From Escherichia coli (GTDB lineage: Bacteria; Pseudomonadota; Gammaproteobacteria; Enterobacterales; Enterobacteriaceae): a DNA stretch of 64,000 nucleotides. The translations under genes and the position numbers were made by a program. Location of the stretch: assembly GCF_024298765.1 (NCBI RefSeq), contig NZ_CP101210.1, one strand, 5' to 3'. This document shows, in pieces, positions 25,568-35,439 of the stretch (its first letter is position 1; the number at the start of each line of letters is the position of its first letter). The notes beneath the pieces were generated by a model. The model saw nothing but the letters and a program-made list of their open reading frames with translations, searched no databases and was not told the DNA's origin.

Positions 25568-25681
25568 CGGATTCAGGTTCAGGATGAATGATCTCCGTTG
25601 ACTTCAGTTCACATCATTAATCAATGCGGTAAGTTTTTACCGACGGAGTGTTTCCAGGAGCGGAGGCTCAGGCCTTAAGCT

Positions 25682-26248
25682 TCAGAAGTGAGGCTTACGA
25701 GGACGCCCTGCAGCAGGACGTTCAGGAACTTCATTGCAGCCGTAGGCACACAGCCCGTCTTTTTGTTCTTCTTTCGCCAGATAATGCAGGGCACCGCGAA
25801 TATTATCGATGCTTTCAGGATCGTTGTGGCGCACAGGAATGTTGATGTTGTATGCATAATGCGGCTGATATGTACAGCGGTGCGCCGAACCACAGTTATA
25901 CGTAATTGCCTGCCAGCATTCCGCTATCCGCTCCGCAAAGGGATATATTTTTTTAACCCTCTGACGATCGATCCAGAAAACGACATGCGCATGAAAACCA
26001 TGATCAGCCGTCCATTCAATCACCCAGAAGAAACCAACGATATTTTCAAATTGTTCCACCTGCTCCAGCAGCATACGCAACTGTAATTCAAGCCAGCGAT
26101 GATCAGGTTGTAAGAAATCGGGCGTATCTTTCCTGTAGAAGAAATCCATCCGTAAGGCCCGCAGGCAGGAATAGCGTGCCATCATTTGATTGATGTGATT
26201 GTCAAGTAAAGCGGTAAAAAACCAGTTTGGTGTGTAAGATTTAGGCAT
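25682..26248 (-). CDS. Inovirus Gp2-family (YfjJ/YagK-like) protein, paralogue 2
   Basis: 188-aa ORF with family-typical core (...GFFWVIEWTADHGFHAHVVFW...); tandem with paralogue 1 downstream of alpA. Confidence 0.6.
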   Translation of the reverse strand: MPKSYTPNWFFTALLDNHINQMMARYSCLRALRMDFFYRKDTPDFLQPDHRWLELQLRMLLEQVEQFENIVGFFWVIEWTADHGFHAHVVFWIDRQRVKKIYPFAERIAECWQAITYNCGSAHRCTYQPHYAYNINIPVRHNDPESIDNIRGALHYLAKEEQKDGLCAYGCNEVPERPAAGRPRKPHF

Positions 26249-27665
26249 GTTGATGACTCCTGAAAGTTAATGATGTTTTAAGCTCTGTGAGCGAATTAAT
26301 GCTTTCGCTCATAATCAGATCTAAAACGGTAATAACTTACAGATGGTATTTATCAGGCATGCTGTAACAGAATGGATACGACGGATTATTAACGACACAC
26401 AGCGTTGTGCTGAAGGGTATGAGTTATCTGATGGCATTGTCTATAGAGATGAGATAAACGAGGTGCGAAGAAAATACAGATTCAATACAACACAGTGAAA
26501 TACAGAAAAATACGAACTGTAATCCCGCTGCCAGGCGGTTAGGAAACATATTACAACTATAAGCTCATGATTTGTAAATTTGCTCTCAGTGAGTCTGAAA
26601 AAACGTTTATAAGGTCACCACAATAAACTCACACGCGCTTATTCAATCTGTTTTCCAGGATATGAACGTTAACGACACACGATAGCATAAGACAACATAC
26701 AATGGATGAATAATTTTCACCCAGTACCTTAAACAATACAACCGGCAACAAATATAATCAGAAATTCACTCTGTTAATTCTGTTGTTTATCCTGCGCTGT
26801 TAAACATGACGGAATCATGGATACCTTATCAAAGAGTAAACATTCAGTTAATCTGTGATGACAGAGAAATTGTTTCCAACCAGAATAGTTAAAACACTTC
26901 AGATAAACAATCATTGTTAAGCAAATACAGTTCATGATGGATAAGATTAAAATCAATTGCTGTTTCACTGAAAATGAGAACAGATGGATATCAGCAATAG
27001 CGTAGTAGAGAATAACTTATCCGAACATCATATGAGTTACAGTAATTATGATTGAGGGGGATGGAGTGGATACGATAACAAGAGTAAATAAAGACAGAGT
27101 AAAAGTAAAGGGCAAGTGTAATAATAGTAATAAACCTAAATTAAAATTATCCATGTTTGATGTAAAAATAATAATATACTGACAACCATGAAGGTAAGAA
27201 AAAGAGAGTGCAGGTATCAGGAAGATCTCAGGATATGAAGATTCCCACAGCACAGATTTAAAATTAGTCGAATATAATAAATTTAAAAACCTTAATTAAA
27301 ATGTAATCTCATCCATGGTTAACATGCTCCTGAAAAGGAAAGTTACAAATACCGTATGCTACCAACTAATTACAACAATGATATATGTACATTCAGTAAG
27401 AATACAGATAAAATATTAATACCAACTTCCAGTATCAAGATCGTATCGCGAACTTCAGATGCGCTATGAGGCAGTTCAATTTTTAACTTTCGTTTTCCTC
27501 TTCCTCCCTGGCTTCATATGCATAAGCGACTTGAAAGACCCGATGATAGTTACAATTTCAGGTTGTGGCATGACGATCAATTTGTAACTGAAACAATGAA
27601 CGGTAACGCTGCCATATAAACATCAAAATGCGAGCATTACAGCGACATTGAACCGATTAGATGTA

Positions 27666-28421
27666 TCACTCATAATCAGAACAAGATGATGTATCCTGAG
27701 ATATAAGAAAATCATCAAGAGAACCTCCGGCTTTTATTGCTTCTGCAATAACATTAGGCCGACGACCTTGTCCACTCCAGTACATTGTTTGACCGTTATA
27801 CTCATATCTGTATTTATGCCCTCCTGACACACTTTTTCTGCCTGCCTGTAATTTTTTGCCAAATTCACGTTCGTCGATCATGGTAATGATATAGCGACGC
27901 ATTTCACCCATTCTGAGCTCAATGGCGTCCATCCCAATGAGCTCACCGGTCTTTACCAGACGGTAGTGCTTTGGCCGGTGGGGTTTGGCGGTTCGCTTTT
28001 TGACAAGCAGAGCCTTACCCCGCGAGCTCAGACGTACTGGTACCATCCGCATTTTATCGTGTGCGGTGGCGATCATTCTGCCGATGGTGGAAACACTCGG
28101 GCAGGTCAGATGGCGCTGTGCGCACCAGGGCTTCAGGCGAACAAAAATCTGCTCTTTACCGAGGTTTGGCAGCTCTGTCCTGAGGCGTCGAATCTCTTTC
28201 AGCACATCGGGATGCCAGTGCTTTTTTCGTCGCACCAGAGGTGCCTTACTGTGCGGGATTAGCCCCTCAGGTCCTCCCTTGTTCAGTAACTGACGCCACC
28301 AGTAAAGCGTGCGGCAGGACACGCCAAAGGCTTCAGAAGCCGCAGAAATACCGTGTTTATCCCAGAAGTGCAGAGCCTTCATTCTCATTGTTGCTATATC
28401 AGCCATCACTGAAAGCCTCAA
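27666..28421 (-). mobile_element. IS transposase remnant (IS3/IS481-like N-terminal HTH, truncated catalytic core)
   Basis: N-terminal MKALHFWDKHGISAASEAFGVSCRTLYWWRQLL typical of IS transposase HTH; DDE core begins then is lost to an unrelated C-terminus; track start is TTG, ATG at 28406; no inverted repeats identified. Confidence 0.5.
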
Positions 28422-28899
28422 CGCATAATCGGCCGTTTAGGATAGCCAACCATCAGATGCTGCATTTGCATAGTGCAATCTCCCCTTACTTATCCGGAGG
28501 CAATTGCAATATCTCTGTGAACTTACACACAGGTATAATCAATAAGGGCGTACGGAGATTGCCCGTTATTGCTGCAGGATCGGCAGACTGGTTCCCGTCC
28601 TTGCGCATATAACTGTACAACCACAGAGAAAAGCATCAATGCACGCTTTATGTTGCGTCAGGGCAGCGAACGACTCCTTTTGTTGACGACACATATCACC
28701 TTCTGTACTGCCAATTATGGCATTCAGCGTCTCCCCGAGTTTTAAGCTCCTGCTCTTACGAACCAGCGACAAGCAATAAATAACTATGGCAATGAATCTA
28801 ATAACAGCATAAATATGAGACTCATCGATACTCATCGTGATTAGTATAATCGGGGCAGAATTATATTCACTGTCTGATTTATTATTGAGTTAAATATAA

Positions 28900-29352
28900 T
28901 TAAAGTGTTCTCAAAAGTCTGGCTGGATTACCGGCATACACGCCTTTTACCAGCACGGGCTTTGTAACCACACTACCAGCACCAATCACTGCTCCACTGC
29001 AAATTTCTGTGGTTAAAATGGTCGCTCCGCTACCCACTGTTACAGTGTTACCTAATACGATGCGTATCCAGCTTTCTGCAGAGGCATCGGGACCACCACA
29101 CTTAAAAAGATCATTAGCAAAAGTTACGCCATGACCGATGAAACAGCCATCACCTAAAATGACGTTCTCACAGATGAAACTGTGGGACTGAATTCGGCTC
29201 CGGTTGCCAATGATACATCCCTTCTGTATTTCCACAAAGGGACCGATAAAAACATCATCCCCCAGTTCACATTCATAGAGGTTTACTGGCATGACGACTT
29301 TCACATTTTCACCAAATTTCACATCACGAATGCGGCTGTCAATAACGTTCAT
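28900..29352 (-). CDS. Hexapeptide-repeat (left-handed beta-helix) acetyltransferase
   Basis: 150-aa ORF with repeated [LIV]G-x4 hexapeptide pattern (IGNRSRIQSHSFICENVILGDGCFIGHGVTF...); ATG start. Confidence 0.75.
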   Translation of the reverse strand: MNVIDSRIRDVKFGENVKVVMPVNLYECELGDDVFIGPFVEIQKGCIIGNRSRIQSHSFICENVILGDGCFIGHGVTFANDLFKCGGPDASAESWIRIVLGNTVTVGSGATILTTEICSGAVIGAGSVVTKPVLVKGVYAGNPARLLRTL

Positions 29353-29861
29353 ATCCGTTGTATCCTCCCTCAGGATGATTCTTATCAGAACATTTCACCT
29401 GTCAGAATATTCCCGGTAATGTGATACAAGAGCCAGTCTCACCGGGTACCATGTGTTATTGCTCGTATCCTTTTGCCCGTTACGAGTGTACAACCGGTTT
29501 TATATTTTGCAATCCAGGCCTGTTACACCAGAGCATCCTCTCACTGCCCCCTCACTGGTCAATCCGGGATTCAAAGTCATCCTCCAGCACTAAACCCCAT
29601 ACCAGTCCTGAACCTTCCCTCGCCAGCAGCCAGACTCCTACTGTTCACCACAATCCTCTTCCGTGAATGGCCGTAAGTGCGCAGCACCAAAATAAATCGG
29701 TACTTCCGATGACAGACAGTGAAAGCGTCAGAGAAATATGAACATGAGAATGGAAGCAGATACATGACTTCAGGACGACTTTTTCAGAAAACGAGCTAAG
29801 GGCGTCAGCCAACGACCTTACCGTGGTATACGCTCAGGCGCCGGATGCCGTTTTACCCGGT

Positions 29862-30593
29862 TCACCTGCCATCCAGCAAACGCCCCGGCCCACGACTGCA
29901 ACCATAATTACGTTGCCCGGAACCGTCATGCTGCTTCGTCTCATATTTCACGAGATAACTGGCTCTGTTCCGGGCTTTCTGCATCGCTTCCACATCACCA
30001 CGCTTGATCCAGAGAACAGCGGCTTCACCAGACTTTTTGTCTGAAGCCTTCCAGGTATCAGAACATCCACCCGACAAAGGCGTGTCATCGGAAGAAGGGC
30101 GAACATCAGACGATGCTGGTTTACGGGAAGGCGTCCACCTGGAAAAATGGACCAGGCCATCGCCTTGCCAGGGCTCAAGATGCAGGGCGCTGCACCATGC
30201 CTCCTGGATCATCGTCGCCAGCGAAGACGGTTCGCTGAAATCCCCGAGCGAGCACCAGGTATCTTTGTTGAGCAGTAATATCACGTGATAATGTTTCCTG
30301 CCATACATCTTGCCGAACTCCCGGCACCAGAAATAACCCAGGCTGGTTGCATGCACACGCTGATTGGCACATCTTTTTTTCCGCTGGTAAGCCTGAATTT
30401 TGGCTTTCAGGGATGCAAAAAAACGAGAAATCACCGCTGAATCCGGATCGGGATCCATGATGGTGACAGGCATATACTCAGGGAAACGTAAATCCACCCG
30501 GATTAACGAGACGGCACGGTGCTGCGCCAGGGCACTGTCGAGAAGGCTGTCAAAACGGGATAACCAGTAAGCATTGTGTATTGGTTGATTCAT
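29862..30593 (-). CDS. Inovirus Gp2-family (YfjJ/YagK-like) protein, paralogue 3
   Basis: 243-aa ORF, ATG start, conserved HYHVILLLNKD segment; conserved leader motif immediately upstream (30601-30648). Confidence 0.7.
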   Translation of the reverse strand: MNQPIHNAYWLSRFDSLLDSALAQHRAVSLIRVDLRFPEYMPVTIMDPDPDSAVISRFFASLKAKIQAYQRKKRCANQRVHATSLGYFWCREFGKMYGRKHYHVILLLNKDTWCSLGDFSEPSSLATMIQEAWCSALHLEPWQGDGLVHFSRWTPSRKPASSDVRPSSDDTPLSGGCSDTWKASDKKSGEAAVLWIKRGDVEAMQKARNRASYLVKYETKQHDGSGQRNYGCSRGPGRLLDGR

Positions 30594-30984
30594 GATGAGA
30601 GATCTCCGTTGATTTGGATTGACTTCACATCATTAATCAACGCAGTAAAACTTTACGGCATCCGACATTGAGCAATACTACAACTCTCTGATTAAGAGTG
30701 ATTGAAACGGAACAAACCATCCCGGAACGAAAAGATAATCCTGCACACAGCAGCAAAATACGCAACAACAGCATGAATGGATTTAAAAACGACATGGACG
30801 ACGAGAAAAGTCTGAAGGGAAAAGGAGCCACAGAACATTCGAACAAAACACCAGAAATGCAACCAGAACGCTTCCTGGCAATGCAAATCAACAACAACGC
30901 CAAAACCTACAACTTAATCACACAACTCAATCACGGATGCGAATGACACGCTTAAAACCTGTTTACAGATAACGCCGTAACACG

Positions 30985-31026
30985 ATCATCACCATCACCA
31001 TCACCATCACCATCACCATCACCATC
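30985..31026. repeat. Hexanucleotide simple-sequence repeat (ACCATC)x6 with flanking ATC
   Basis: Read directly: gatcatc(accatc)6ag; no start codon in the poly-His frame (a TAA lies immediately upstream). Confidence 0.85.
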
Positions 31027-31461
31027 AGAATCGATTTTCTCATCCCGAAAATGTTACGTTTCACTACGCACCATAAAAACGATTAACCATCGATAACGTA
31101 AATCTCATCTGAATCAAAACACCAAAACCGTTCATCACACTTTCGCAATGCAAGAAGAAACCTCATGACAAAAAGAATGACCTTACACGGAAAAGAAAAA
31201 CGTCAGGAATCGTTAATGCCTCAATCTGATTGTTATCAAAACATCCAGAAAGTCGTTTAACAGAATCGTCGTAAGCACATCGAAAAGAACGTCAGATTAC
31301 TTCAGGAAAGTTCGGGTTGATTTAGCGTAAAGATACTTTTCTCAAGCTAACGTCGAAACTCGAAATCTCAGGAAAGGTTAAACGTAACATCAGTAAAATC
31401 GAATAGCAGATTGATTGCTTAAACAGAAAGGTTTTACAGCAGCATTAAACTGATTTAGTTA

Positions 31462-31497
31462 ACGTAAAGATTTACTAAACGTAAAGATTTACTAAAC
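31462..31497. repeat. Tandem duplication of a 17-bp unit (cgtaaagatttactaaa)
   Basis: Read directly in the ORF-poor segment; about 100 bp downstream are three spaced copies of acgtgtat(a) (near 31572, 31606, 31636). Confidence 0.7.
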
Positions 31498-32593
31498 TGG
31501 ATGTGTATCAGATCAAACAATGTGTACAGCAATGCTTAATGAAAATACTTGTAGAATTGTTTATGAGAAAGCGTGTATAACACTTACTGAAATGCTTAGT
31601 TAAATACGTGTATGTTTGGTAAAACACTTAAGTAAAATACGTGTATAGTACCATTCCCGACATTCTCAACATCTTCAGACATCCATGCAGACTGAGTGTT
31701 GATTTCAGTTTTTCACGGCCAGCATGGATCTTTACTGTTTAAAAAACATACAGATTTACTCTGAAATTATTTACCCAGGCCTCCCTGAAAAGACCATCCG
31801 GAGCATCCCGTTCGTCAGCTTCCATGTTGTCTTTTACCCCGGAAAGTGATCGCATTTTCCAGCCAGAATGACAGCCATACTGATTATGACGTCTCTCCGG
31901 CCCCTTCACATATAACATTCATGTCAGTCATTTCTTACTGCCTCACTCACCGGAATTCTCCATGCCGGATGAAGCAATTGTTCTGAACTGAGCAGAAGCA
32001 TAACAGCACACAAGGAAACGACTGTGCTATAGATCCTGGAATCAGGATCTTAATGTCAGGAAAACAATGACGACCGGGGATAACCAACAACAACCTGAGT
32101 ACAGAAGAAAGCTTTCCCGCGCACGCCATCATCTTATGTAAGAGGATATGATGCCACCCCCACCTCAGAAGAACCGTCTCCGGGAGAACTTCACTGCATC
32201 CAAAATCCTTTTGCTGAGTTCTCATTCCCCATCATGGCAGCTACAGACATGCCCTGACAGAGCGTATGCGCATTGAGAGAAATAACCATAAATGATGAGA
32301 AGACACTCTATATAACGACAGCATGTTGAGGCATCAAAAATATTCATATAAATATTTTAAGAAAATTTTTTATTGCAAACTACAGGAAATAACATGATGT
32401 CAATATAATTTTTTAAAAAACGTGATATTAATCACATTGTAATTTTCTGTGTTTTTATGTAAATCAGAGAAAAGAGTCCATGAACGTTATTGCATTTTTT
32501 CTGATGTATGGATAAAAGGGGATTCAGGCGAAATTTACTGACAGAGGTGATAAGAGGGGGGTTAAAGAGTTCTATAGAGTTGGTTGTGCATTT

Positions 32594-33463
32594 ATGCCCA
32601 GGGAGTTCATGTCTGTGCATTCACCAGATGAATCTGATCATGTTTTTAGTCGGATGGAATATGAATATTACCGACATAACGATAAATCACCTTCTGTTAA
32701 TGCTGATAATGCAGGCAGAGACGTTGTTCCGGAGTGGGTGCAAAAAGACCCTGTAGCCGCATTCTGGGTATGGATGTTTATATATCATGTTCCTGACAGT
32801 ATTGTCCGACTCTCAGGTGAGCAATATGCAGATTACGGAATTTCCTGTCTGTATGCCAGACTGTTTGCCACAGAAGCAGCTCCAGCTAATCATCAGGCAA
32901 GGATTCGTGTGACGAGAAAATGGCTACAGGAGCTTATAAGGCTAACCGGGACAGAAAATGTATCTGACTTCTTGTATGTCGTTCATTTTTTATGGTCATA
33001 TGCTGAAAAAGTGAACCCCATGACATGGCTTGGTTCCCGGCGGATACATATCAAATGGGCATGGGCGTATCTGCAAAAACATTGCACTGACGAAGAACGT
33101 CACTGTCCTGATATTTCAGAATTTAAAGCTTCAGGGGAGTCACGTCTGTTCATAATAGCTTATGTGCGCCGTGTCTTCATGAAAATCTATTCTGTCGGTA
33201 CTGAACCTCAAAAGTTAAAAGAATTAGTTTATCAGCAGAATGATTTTCTCAGGCGCATGAAGTGCTCATACCAGAAAATGTTCCGGTATGAGAAAACCGA
33301 TTCCCGGGTACAGATAAGTGCCCTGATTTCTCCGGAAGCCAGGAATGCACTCCGGAAAATGGCAAAAAAGAATAATCTGACGCAGGCTGAAATCCTGGAT
33401 AAACTCATCTTATCAGCTGATCGTCTGTTTATGCAGAAAACAGCAGGGGATTATTCCCGTTAA
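32594..33463 (+). CDS. Uncharacterised protein with C-terminal ribbon-helix-helix-like segment
   Basis: 289-aa ORF with ATG start; C-terminal VQISALISPEARNALRKMAKKNNLTQAEILDKLIL fits a beta-strand/helix/helix (CopG/Arc-like) pattern; no other family recognised. Confidence 0.5.
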   Translation: MPREFMSVHSPDESDHVFSRMEYEYYRHNDKSPSVNADNAGRDVVPEWVQKDPVAAFWVWMFIYHVPDSIVRLSGEQYADYGISCLYARLFATEAAPANHQARIRVTRKWLQELIRLTGTENVSDFLYVVHFLWSYAEKVNPMTWLGSRRIHIKWAWAYLQKHCTDEERHCPDISEFKASGESRLFIIAYVRRVFMKIYSVGTEPQKLKELVYQQNDFLRRMKCSYQKMFRYEKTDSRVQISALISPEARNALRKMAKKNNLTQAEILDKLILSADRLFMQKTAGDYSR

Positions 33464-34449
33464 TGAGTTCCACCAGAACCGTTTTTCTTTTTGCTGCTGT
33501 TTTTGCGTTTATGCTGTTCGTACCTTTCTTTTGACGTACAAAGGAATCTTCCATAAACATTGCGGATATATGAGTTGATATACTCCAGCATTCTCTCTTT
33601 TCGTGATTTCCCTTTTTCCTTCGAATCTTCACTTTGAACATTAATGTCCATCAGTTCTTTTATAAACTTATCCAGATTTTCCATGTCATAAAGCAGCATG
33701 AAAAACATCACATTTCCCAGTGATTCCAGTAACTGAGATTCAACCCAGTCCCCATATTTTCTGAAACTTAGCCCTGTTAAAAACTGTTCAAACATTACCC
33801 CTGATACAAAAAGAGATTTTAATCCCAGTCGCTTATATTCCTGGTAAAAAAGTTCAAACGTCGGGGATTCTGAACGGCAAATAAACGAAGACAGCGCCCA
33901 TGGATCAAAATCTGTAACACGCCTCCCCTCCCACACTTCCTGCCGTGTCAGCGGCGGTTCAGCAAACCAGGCGTCCAGCTCAGCCGAATCGCTGTCCCTG
34001 CTCAAAACCTTATACAAACTGCCCGTGAACGGTTGAGGCGGATTTTTGGTTGCTTCATCTTCTGATTGTCTGGATTGTCTGGATTGTCTGGATTGTCTGG
34101 ATTGTCTGAATCCGTCCACTTTTCTCCGGATATTACGCGGGATCAGCATAAAAGGCGGGACATTAAGTGATAAACGTTTACCCGTCATGCGATACCATTG
34201 CCCCACCTCAACCTTAATCCGTGTATCTGACTTTAGCTCAAGTGCCATTATGTTAAGCAGGTACAGATAACGCACCGTATAACAGTCAAAATGTTTCTCC
34301 GGATCAAACGGCTCTGACCGTTCTCTGCACACGAGTCCGCTGCGCTTCAGTATTCGCTGGGTATCTTTCCAGGCCTTACACTGAAGAATGGTGGTAACTC
34401 TGGCCTTATTAGCAATCTCACGCAGCGCATCACTTTGTTGTGCCGTCAT
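33460..34449 (-). CDS. Uncharacterised protein with internal (RQS)5 repeat
   Basis: 329-aa ORF, ATG start preceded by GGGAGGTGAG Shine-Dalgarno; contains an in-frame 9-bp tandem repeat (34062-34106); stop overlaps the stop of the convergent 32594 gene (TTAA). Confidence 0.55.
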   Translation of the reverse strand: MTAQQSDALREIANKARVTTILQCKAWKDTQRILKRSGLVCRERSEPFDPEKHFDCYTVRYLYLLNIMALELKSDTRIKVEVGQWYRMTGKRLSLNVPPFMLIPRNIRRKVDGFRQSRQSRQSRQSRQSEDEATKNPPQPFTGSLYKVLSRDSDSAELDAWFAEPPLTRQEVWEGRRVTDFDPWALSSFICRSESPTFELFYQEYKRLGLKSLFVSGVMFEQFLTGLSFRKYGDWVESQLLESLGNVMFFMLLYDMENLDKFIKELMDINVQSEDSKEKGKSRKERMLEYINSYIRNVYGRFLCTSKERYEQHKRKNSSKKKNGSGGTH

Positions 34450-34554
34450 CTCACCTCCCGCACTCTGTCACTCCAGATTTTTTCACGTCCATATTACCTG
34501 AATGATAAGCCGGATTAGTGTGATCCGGTTCAGCGAAATCAACAGGATAACGGT

Positions 34555-35439
34555 ATGTCATTCAGCCATTCTTCCCTCTCCGCACAAGTGAAATCACATC
34601 TGACGTTTCTTCCTGAAGAAATTCGCCAGAAAATCCTTGAACATCTCCACAGTGTTATTCATTACGAGCCCGTGATTGGCATTATGGGTAAATCCGGAAC
34701 AGGCAAAAGCAGTCTGTGTAATGCCATTTTTCAGTCCCGTATCTGCGCCACACATCCTCTGAACGGCTGCACCCGCCAGGCTCATCGTCTTACCCTGCAG
34801 TTCGGTGAACGCAGAATGACGCTGGTCGATCTGCCCGGCATTGGTGAAACACCGCAGCATGATCAGGAATACCGGACACTTTATCGTCAGCTGCTACCGG
34901 AACTGGATCTGATTATCTGGATCCTGCGGGCTGATGAACGTGCGTATGCTGCTGATATTGCCATGCATCAGTTTTTACTGAATGAAGGCGCAGATCCCTC
35001 GCGTTTTCTGTTTGTTCTCAGCCATGCCGATCGCGTGTTTCCTGCTGAAGAATGGAATGCCACAGAAAAATGCCCGTCCCGTCAGCAGTCGCTCTCACTG
35101 GCGACGGTGACAGCCCGGGTGGCAACCCTGTTCCCTTCATCATTTCCGGTACTCTCCGTTGCTGCACCTGTCGGCTGGAACCTTCCGGCGTTTGTGTCGC
35201 TGATGATCCACGCACTGCCACCACAGGCAACCAGCGCGGTGTATTCACATATCCGGGGAGAAAACCGCTCTGAACAGGCCCGGAAACACGCACAACAGAC
35301 TTTTGGTGAAACCATCGGGAAAAGTTTTGACGACGCCGTTGCCCGTTTCAGTTTTCCGGCCTGGATGTTACAGCTTCTGCGCAAAACCCGGGACCGCATT
35401 ATCCACCTGCTGGTCACACTGTGGGATCACCTGTTCTGA
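34555..35439 (+). CDS. YeeP/YkfA/YfjP-family GTPase
   Basis: 294-aa ORF with P-loop GKSGTGKSSLCNAIF and DLPGIGE (G3) motifs; position typical of CP4-44/CP4-57-like elements. Confidence 0.8.
   Translation: MSFSHSSLSAQVKSHLTFLPEEIRQKILEHLHSVIHYEPVIGIMGKSGTGKSSLCNAIFQSRICATHPLNGCTRQAHRLTLQFGERRMTLVDLPGIGETPQHDQEYRTLYRQLLPELDLIIWILRADERAYAADIAMHQFLLNEGADPSRFLFVLSHADRVFPAEEWNATEKCPSRQQSLSLATVTARVATLFPSSFPVLSVAAPVGWNLPAFVSLMIHALPPQATSAVYSHIRGENRSEQARKHAQQTFGETIGKSFDDAVARFSFPAWMLQLLRKTRDRIIHLLVTLWDHLF

Follow-up and report, generated by a model that had tools for sequence, protein, structure and literature searches.

Gene content and conservation of the intergenic segment

The window analyzed here is a 64-kb stretch (64,000 nucleotides) of Escherichia coli DNA. 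Within it, a 2-kb segment (positions 30594–32593) separates two divergently oriented genes: a 243-aa gene of the "inovirus Gp2 family" at 29862–30593 on the minus strand and a 289-aa protein gene at 32594–33463 on the plus strand. The initial annotation had drawn attention to the scarcity of open reading frames (ORFs) in this segment, and this was borne out. From the Gp2 start codon (30593, minus strand) to the ORF at 32594–33463 only short ORFs were present, and none of at least 60 aa was found in 30947–31946. The ORF of the 289-aa gene starts at 32594; the start assigned by the Prokaryotic Genome Annotation Pipeline (PGAP) is at 32609. The sole RefSeq call in the segment is an 82-aa "hypothetical" protein at 30698–30946, whose product is known solely as an E. 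coli "hypothetical" and whose ORF is disrupted by 10-, 12- and 1-nt indels in other lineages. A 1-kb run free of ORFs is not improbable in random DNA; the unusual feature is 2 kb of gene-free sequence in a bacterial genome.

The 243-aa protein, a member of the Gp2 / YagK-YfjJ family, matched the Pfam families PF11726 and PF23343 (REP_ORF2-G2P) and, weakly, three phage (PHROG) "replication initiation protein" families. The motifs RVDLRFP, KHYHVILLLNKD (HUH), and RASYLVKY (catalytic Tyr) were kept in relatives down to about 35% identity. By its Pfam matches, conserved motifs, PHROG matches, and predicted fold, Gp2 is a predicted HUH origin-binding nickase, and it has no helicase domain. The gene is under purifying selection, with a ratio of nonsynonymous to synonymous divergence (dN/dS) of 0.31 (Nei-Gojobori). 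Members of the E. coli 243-aa clade carry a 45-aa Ser/Pro/Asp-rich insertion at residues about 150–197, which is missing in the ~195-aa relatives. This insertion is predicted to be disordered (predicted local distance difference test, pLDDT, < 50), and its evolution is close to neutral (dN/dS = 0.77 versus 0.26 for the remaining protein). The gene has an internal stop in E. coli MRE162 (locus L028; loci fetched for comparison are designated by L numbers), and many database entries are truncated, at 148–214 aa. Thus, the Gp2 gene appears to be lost fairly often, despite purifying selection where it is intact.

The 289-aa protein is named "replication regulatory RepB family protein" in several NCBI records, and homologues with a precomputed PF10723 match were found. 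Its C-terminal motif resembles a ribbon-helix-helix (RHH) domain and is conserved in distant homologues (A3). Sub-threshold matches were obtained to PRK13702 RepA2/CopB, RHH_1, RepB-RCR_reg, RHH_9, and an Arc-like PHROG. In Morganellaceae islands, a distant homologue of the protein is encoded by the gene immediately divergent from Gp2, across an intergenic region of about 400 nt. This layout suggests that the ancestral arrangement consisted of a rep-like gene and a regulator-like gene transcribed away from a short control region, of which the E. coli version is an expanded form.

Megablast of the segment against 5426 complete E. coli genomes returned matches at 2596 places in 1878 genomes, about a third of the total. 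Only 123 records had at least 80% of the 2 kb covered. The sub-part 31104–31790 was matched near full length (coverage of at least 80%) in 1834 genomes, with 70%–100% identity, and all but one of the matches listed had no annotated feature beneath them. The first 1179 nt (30594–31772) form a family-conserved non-coding core, which always adjoins the 243-aa Gp2 gene and is carried, among others, by uropathogenic E. coli (UPEC) 536 and enterotoxigenic E. coli (ETEC) H10407. Alignments between lineages fail beyond 31772–31970. The adjoining stretch 31773–32300 is a lineage-specific filler without a conserved gene, which co-varies with the type of downstream gene, and the ORFs in it had no family matches. 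Every fetched locus contained the Gp2 gene (minus strand), 1.5–1.8 kb of gene-free DNA, one or two hypothetical genes, and a GTPase gene (plus strand). The same order was found in distant Brenneria and Morganellaceae islands, with an intergenic region of just 400–745 nt. These distant Gp2 loci were reached via protein look-ups; a scan of genome contigs with the Gp2 protein returned just two near-identical loci. The GTPase gene is separated from the non-coding region by genes that vary by lineage (329, 407, 345 aa, and others), such as 33460–34449 (minus strand) in the window and a 407-aa gene in L005/L015. They had no family assignment and showed at most weak mutual similarity (E about 0.005–0.09, 25% identity over about 200 aa).

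The segment was 100% identical to that of E. coli ACN002 (NZ_CP007491.1), where it lies within a genomic island of ~52 kb integrated at tRNA-Phe beside dicD; the integration site reads as pheU. The window itself represents this pheU-integrated island. The island encodes a P4-type integrase and a type I restriction system, besides microcin H47 genes. The "CP4-like" right-hand module of the island comprises genes for a GTPase, DUF905, DUF932, an anti-restriction protein, a RadC/JAB protein, DUF987, the YeeU-CbtA toxin-antitoxin pair, and DUF4942. Many genes of E. coli for virulence, microcins, and defence are found on CP4-like islands at tRNA genes. The CP4-57 and CP4-6 islands of K-12 lack the element, and K-12 transcript maps are therefore of no help for the segment.

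Indels in the core alignments were not multiples of 3. Sub-segments were 74%–82% identical between allele types, which corresponds to a Jukes-Cantor distance of about 0.23–0.30; in the same genome pairs, the synonymous divergence (dS) of the flanking genes was 0.08–0.26 for Gp2 and 0.10–0.25 for the GTPase. In one lineage group (L013/L020), 30780–31104 is swapped for 1155 nt with a 176-aa gene, the right boundary being at ~31104. This gene (3801–4331 in L013 and 2339–2869 in L020) encodes a protein with a C-terminus weakly similar to NikA-like/RHH domains (E = 0.011) and to that of the 289-aa protein. Both the 176-aa gene and its 407-aa neighbour show visible decay in L012. An IS4-family element, ISVsa5, was found within the intergenic region in O177:H21 (H27) and 23CRST013 (H55). 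The insertions of the cargo gene and of ISVsa5 indicate that the region tolerates insertions. Short blocks were nevertheless constrained, namely 60 nt beside Gp2, 31072–31087, 31105–31124, and 31657–31669. The best-conserved internal block, CATAAAAACGATTAAC...TCATCTGAATCAAAACACCA at 31072–31124, borders the point of cargo insertion and contains runs of 16 and 20 nt invariant among 11 lineages, where the longest run expected is about 11 nt (P about 0.007 for the 20-mer).

Leader hairpin, repeats, and promoter-like elements

The leader of the Gp2 mRNA (minus strand) contains an inverted repeat, GTTGATTCATGATG / CATCATTAATCAAC, at 30584–30597 / 30628–30641. Its arms form a 13/14-bp stem in which the AUG is paired and the Shine-Dalgarno sequence is enclosed (RNAfold, −37.1 kcal/mol, z = −2.5). 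It is the sole strong hairpin of the region. The sequence of the hairpin is invariant in seven lineages, and start-codon hairpins of unrelated sequence are present in the Morganellaceae locus L021 and the distant homologue L024. An invariant start-codon hairpin with analogues in distant homologues argues for translational repression of the nickase gene.

The Gp2 leader (30594–30656) has a second copy, 76% identical, at 25583–25640, between a second, shorter Gp2-type gene (25682–26248, minus strand, 188 aa, PHROG 7120) and a hypothetical gene of 191 aa downstream. The copy may have arisen by duplication of a regulatory element or be the scar of a recombination event. Upstream of the second Gp2-type gene is a 1.4-kb ORF-poor, A-rich stretch (26249–27665; 38% A, 65% A+T) without an iteron array. 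Its first ~810–920 nt were present in 1572 of the 5426 E. coli genomes at 80%–99% identity, with nothing annotated under the matches listed. Next to it, at 27666–28421 (minus strand), is a 251-aa ORF combining N-terminal helix-turn-helix (HTH) domains with an H-NS C-terminal DNA-binding domain, which RefSeq splits into two pseudogene fragments (H-NS family; HTH, frameshifted).

Near the right end of the core, a putative iteron array at 31500–31649 comprises five to six copies of the core (AAA)AYGTGTAT, several of them preceded by ACACTTANT. The three spaced acgtgtat copies reported initially were all recovered, as AAATACGTGTAT at 31602–31613 and 31635–31646 and GCGTGTAT at 31571–31578, and related copies were identified at 31500–31508 (GATGTGTAT) and 31519–31527 (AATGTGTAC). 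Both exact 12-mers AAATACGTGTAT are unique in the 64 kb, and the AYGTGTAT motif is confined to the array region. The number of copies ranged from four to seven per lineage with an irregular spacing of 19–57 nt, the core being better conserved than the spacers. The equivalent region of Brenneria contains three to four TAAAATGTGT repeats. The iteron zone is 69% A+T. The final iteron overlaps a −10-like element, TATAGT, at 31644–31649 on the plus strand, which recurs across lineages. Directly past this element begins the conserved right end of the core (31657–31772, plus strand), which starts with the invariant CCGACATTCTCAA.

The DNA immediately upstream of the 289-aa gene (32300–32593, plus strand) is a putative AT-rich promoter region with a GC fraction of 0.31. 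A motif scan revealed a near-consensus CRP-like palindrome, cGTGATATTAATCACA, at 32421–32436, about 160 nt upstream of the gene. In ETEC H10407, a CRP ChIP-seq peak was reported at 4251326 (PMC4287617 S3 Table). This peak falls in the equivalent intergenic region (L016, about 3878), upstream of the positional homologue ETEC_3938.

The left part of the core has an extreme strand bias. The plus strand had been described as A+C-rich, and indeed the A+C fraction was 0.69–0.70 over 30700–31140, with the top 300-nt value of the 64 kb (mean 0.513, standard deviation 0.044). The A/C-rich, G/T-poor, near-structureless block as a whole occupies 30700–31202 and would be rut-like (C>G) if transcribed from left to right. 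It has an AT skew of +0.41 and a GC skew of −0.33, and an A+C fraction of 0.68–0.70 was kept in all 13 lineages. Transitions made up 66% of the substitutions in this block, as in the other sub-segments (66%–70% in each). Since all lineages keep the skew and the substitution spectrum is normal, the skew looks inherited rather than actively maintained. The part 30819–31202 is the longest stretch of the window with C/G>1.5 on the plus strand, and its sequence has the properties of a Rho-type target (at least 80 nt of C>G, unstructured, untranslated RNA), with a minimum free energy of about −9 kcal/mol per 150 nt.

Two further repeats lie in the core. The microsatellite noted earlier was found by Tandem Repeats Finder (TRF) as (CATCAC)6.8 at 30987–31027, equal to (ACCATC)6 at 30991–31026, a small correction of its coordinates. 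Five strains otherwise differing by a few substitutions and a 17-bp indel have 3.7, 5.7, 6.7, 7.7, and 9.7 copies of the hexamer. The tract is lineage-specific: it is absent at that site in other lineages, L009 having about three copies. No ORF spans it, the His-coding frame having no start codon after the stop at 30978–30980, and the sole nearby promoter-like site, TTTACA-16-GATCAT at 30962–30989, ends at the 5' edge of the tract. In view of the lack of a reading frame or convincing promoter spacer over the tract, a role in phase variation is not supported. The second repeat, the 17-bp tandem duplication with the unit GATTTACTAAACGTAAA, was likewise reproduced by TRF, with 2.7 copies at 31452–31497, and one copy is missing in strain MRE162. 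Both the microsatellite and the 17-bp duplication are recent slippage products in unconstrained DNA.

Interpretation of the region

The initial annotation had left three explanations open: a regulatory region, a non-coding RNA, or decayed genes. A structured RNA found no support. An E-value-mode Rfam scan of 28000–35000 returned only chance-level matches to sR19 (22.9 versus 45 bits; at 28397–28460, outside the core) and STnc410 (20.7 versus 50 bits; a 51-nt fragment). Sliding 150-nt RNAfold windows gave z near 0 on both strands of 30650–31700, and the plus strand around 30900–31200 folds at about −9 kcal/mol per 150 nt. With RNAalifold and column shuffles, no 200-nt window of either strand had a z of −2 or below, and the minus strand of 31094–31393 was even less structured than the shuffles (alignment z +2.4 to +3.3). 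The idea of a CsrA sponge formed by CAGGAA repeats was dropped, since the motifs are not conserved in other lineages.

Decayed genes are an extremely unlikely source of the region. The decay of the neighbouring cargo genes in L012, which gives a 3.7-kb ORF-poor stretch, and the 82-aa RefSeq ORF could be taken as hints of such an origin. However, none of the homologous loci had an intact gene across the 1179-nt core, and tblastn of neighbour proteins (Brenneria, Morganellaceae, H10407, L013) against the region detected no decayed genes. Pfam and NCBIfam scans of ORFs of at least 40 aa in the region gave no matches, and the 82-aa ORF itself is frameshifted by indels elsewhere. Most likely, the segment is neither an RNA gene nor a gene remnant.

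The regulatory option is favoured by the divergent HUH Rep-like and RHH-like genes, the start-codon hairpin, the iterons, the −10-like element, and the CRP-like site. We therefore tentatively read the segment as a divergent gene-free control region, possibly origin-like, of a Rep-like/regulator gene pair in the backbone of a CP4-like island, its function being deduced from these features. In this model, the hairpin of the Gp2 leader would hide the start codon and the ribosome-binding site and thereby keep translation low. The four to seven iterons would most likely bind an island-encoded protein; Gp2 is the sole candidate present in every lineage, and the RHH-type neighbour is the second. The array could act as the operator of a rightward promoter whose −10 element overlaps the last iteron; a further possible role is that of "bind locus" in an origin of the rolling-circle type. 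At the right end, the AT-rich promoter with its CRP-type site would drive the regulator gene. The 500-nt A/C-rich block and the lineage-specific filler would represent padding, now neutrally evolving. A rightward transcript over this padding would be C-rich, unstructured, and untranslated, an ideal target for Rho, and in this way the block may insulate the rightward module.

Several results weigh against the control region proposed here. The region as a whole diverges at about the neutral (synonymous) rate, a few short blocks excepted, and given this near-neutral divergence most of the 2 kb may be functionless. The RHH fold of the 289-aa protein was not confirmed by a monomer model (predicted template modeling score, pTM, 0.60), Foldseek, or a PDB profile search; the RHH assignment, based on sub-threshold matches and a motif, is probable, not proven. 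Moreover, the E. coli 536 lineages (L005/L015) keep the iterons without the RHH-type gene, and the RHH protein thus cannot be the sole binder. In a consensus scan of the region, sigma-70-like sites were weak and fewer than in shuffled sequences, and no terminators were found; a cross-lineage promoter scan revealed weak conserved sites only. DnaA boxes were missing in 30594–32593 except for one relaxed match at 32507. Known nick motifs (phiX/pC194, Ff, pT181, pMV158, nonanucleotide) and a nick-site hairpin were not found. Literature searches (inovirus Gp2, YfjJ/YagK, sequence strings, and multilocus variable-number tandem-repeat analysis (MLVA) plus the repeat unit) returned no paper on the region or on YagK/YfjJ function.

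A lack of conservation had been named at the outset as an outcome that would speak against a functional region, and here the evidence is divided. About 1,870 genomes keep the region as non-coding DNA, but its divergence is close to the neutral rate, and the combination of the two indicates that its retention reflects shared ancestry more than selection. Common descent and a mosaic formed by a few old alleles account for the wide "conservation". This brings us to a possible, though less probable, alternative, in which the region is mostly a functionless, neutrally drifting spacer of foreign or recombinational origin, and only its short promoter and leader ends matter. Such a spacer would be kept solely by sitting between two backbone genes, and slippage without any function would account for the microsatellite and the 17-bp duplication as well as for the ~33-nt repeats. 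Divergence equal to or above the flanking synonymous rate, a normal substitution spectrum with no preservation of A/C identity, and the mosaic alleles are consistent with this explanation. So are the insertions of cargo (the 176-aa gene of L013/L020) and of ISVsa5 (H27/H55) at the same spot, the freely varying repeat copy numbers, and the ability of distant islands to manage with 400–745 nt. A mere spacer is harder to reconcile with invariant runs of 16–20 nt, beyond the expected length, with an iteron core kept better than its spacers and a −10-like element at the array end, or with the presence of the module near full length in 1834 genomes. In addition, the second Gp2-type gene of the window also has a long conserved non-coding stretch upstream.

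The region could also be a rolling-circle-type origin or an origin of transfer (oriT): after excision, Gp2 would bind the iterons and nick nearby, leading to replication or to hand-over to helper conjugation, with the strand-biased block as a single-strand entry zone. We consider this unlikely. Iterons beside a rep gene are the classic layout of the pMV158, geminivirus, and parvovirus origins, a layout that the putative, irregularly spaced iterons beside Gp2 would recall. As in rolling-circle double-strand origins, an HUH Rep-type gene adjoins the region, here with a predicted origin-binding fold, and the partner gene is RepB/CopB-like. The displaced (minus) strand is G/T-rich, which would be the direction expected of a strand that is often single-stranded. 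A theta-type origin finds no support: DnaA boxes were not found apart from the relaxed match at 32507, and no RepA- or Pi-type initiator is encoded nearby. What counts against a rolling-circle origin or oriT is the absence of a conserved loop-nick hairpin besides the start-codon one and of any known nick motif, the neutral-rate evolution of the region, and the frequent truncation of Gp2 or interruption by a stop (MRE162; many partial proteins). The F/R388 and RP4 nic motifs were not present in the core, and neither were ops and Chi. Similarity to plasmid or phage DNA did not extend beyond island copies: blastn against plasmids detected only four E. coli plasmids with pieces of the island itself, a phage collection gave no matches, and IMG/VR gave one contig. 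For many E. coli pathogenicity islands, an oriT unaccompanied by a relaxase has been proposed (Ares-Arroyo et al. 2026, bioRxiv 10.64898/2026.01.13.699239), which would favour an oriT here, but the oriT families of that study are tied to other relaxase types.

The most far-reaching version of this idea, which we regard as distinctly unlikely, is that the 1.18-kb module together with Gp2 forms an unrecognised unit of rolling-circle-type replication or single-strand mobilisation, borne by the CP4-like islands of roughly one in three E. coli genomes. In such a unit the iterons would be the Rep-binding locus, the skewed block the strand-entry or loading zone, and the hexamer tract would tune Rep binding between strains. 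The ACCA repeats of this tract are reminiscent of parvovirus NS1 binding sites. The last alternative is very unlikely: the region would work as a long unstructured transcript, either a rightward A/C-rich Rho-dependent attenuator or a leftward G/U-rich, Rho-resistant 1.1-kb leader of Gp2. Consistent with such a transcript are the longest C/G>1.5 stretch of the window, the near absence of folding energy on the plus strand, and the minus strand of 31094–31393, which is less structured than shuffles. Some lineages have a 407-aa gene upstream of Gp2 and co-oriented with it, making read-through possible. On the contrary, no promoter or terminator signal was found for either transcript, the composition is not preserved by selection, and the A/C block is replaced outright in L013-type lineages.

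Relation to known systems

The segment draws attention to a predicted HUH nickase of classical E. coli islands, so far uncharacterised, and to the sites on which it probably acts in cis. The CP4-like island backbone holds an HUH Rep-like nickase gene facing a long, almost never annotated non-coding module with an iteron array. Should this module be the cis site of the nickase, it would open the replication or mobilisation of classical pathogenicity islands to experimental test. Should it be no more than a promoter region padded with drifting DNA, which the substitution data suggest for the greater part of it, it would be ordinary, and its main practical value would be that of a hypervariable typing marker.

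Simple-sequence contingency loci are comparable in that the hexanucleotide copy number differs among near-identical strains, but no reading frame contains the tract, nor does it separate the −35 and −10 elements of any convincing promoter, and no switch mechanism is apparent. The long C>G, unstructured, and untranslated strand resembles Rho utilisation (rut) regions and the targets of Rho silencing of acquired DNA. A difference is that its composition is not maintained by selection. The "iOriT" elements (Ares-Arroyo et al. 2026) are also large non-coding regions of E. coli pathogenicity islands beside anti-restriction and defence genes, proposed as cis sites of mobilisation. However, those families were defined upstream of recognised relaxases (MOB classes), and the segment showed no blastn similarity to plasmid DNA beyond island copies. 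The nick hairpin of pMV158 and its three regular 11-bp repeats are separated by about 80 bp, and copG shares an operon with repB. In the segment, by contrast, the repeats are 19–57 nt apart, a nick hairpin was not found, the genes are divergent, and the RHH-like domain ends a 289-aa protein.

In the RS2 replication/regulation module of the filamentous prophage CTXphi (rstR – ig-2 – rstA) and in the intergenic region upstream of gene II of Ff phage, a gene for an HUH nickase of the inovirus G2P type faces a non-coding operator/origin region and a divergent small repressor gene. The segment differs from them in the absence of phage structural genes, and packaging or origin hairpins were not found. 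It is also two to four times longer and lies inside a 50-kb tRNA-integrated island. The likeness is in the gene arrangement: Gp2 matches PF23343 REP_ORF2-G2P, and its gene is divergent from that of an RHH-like protein.

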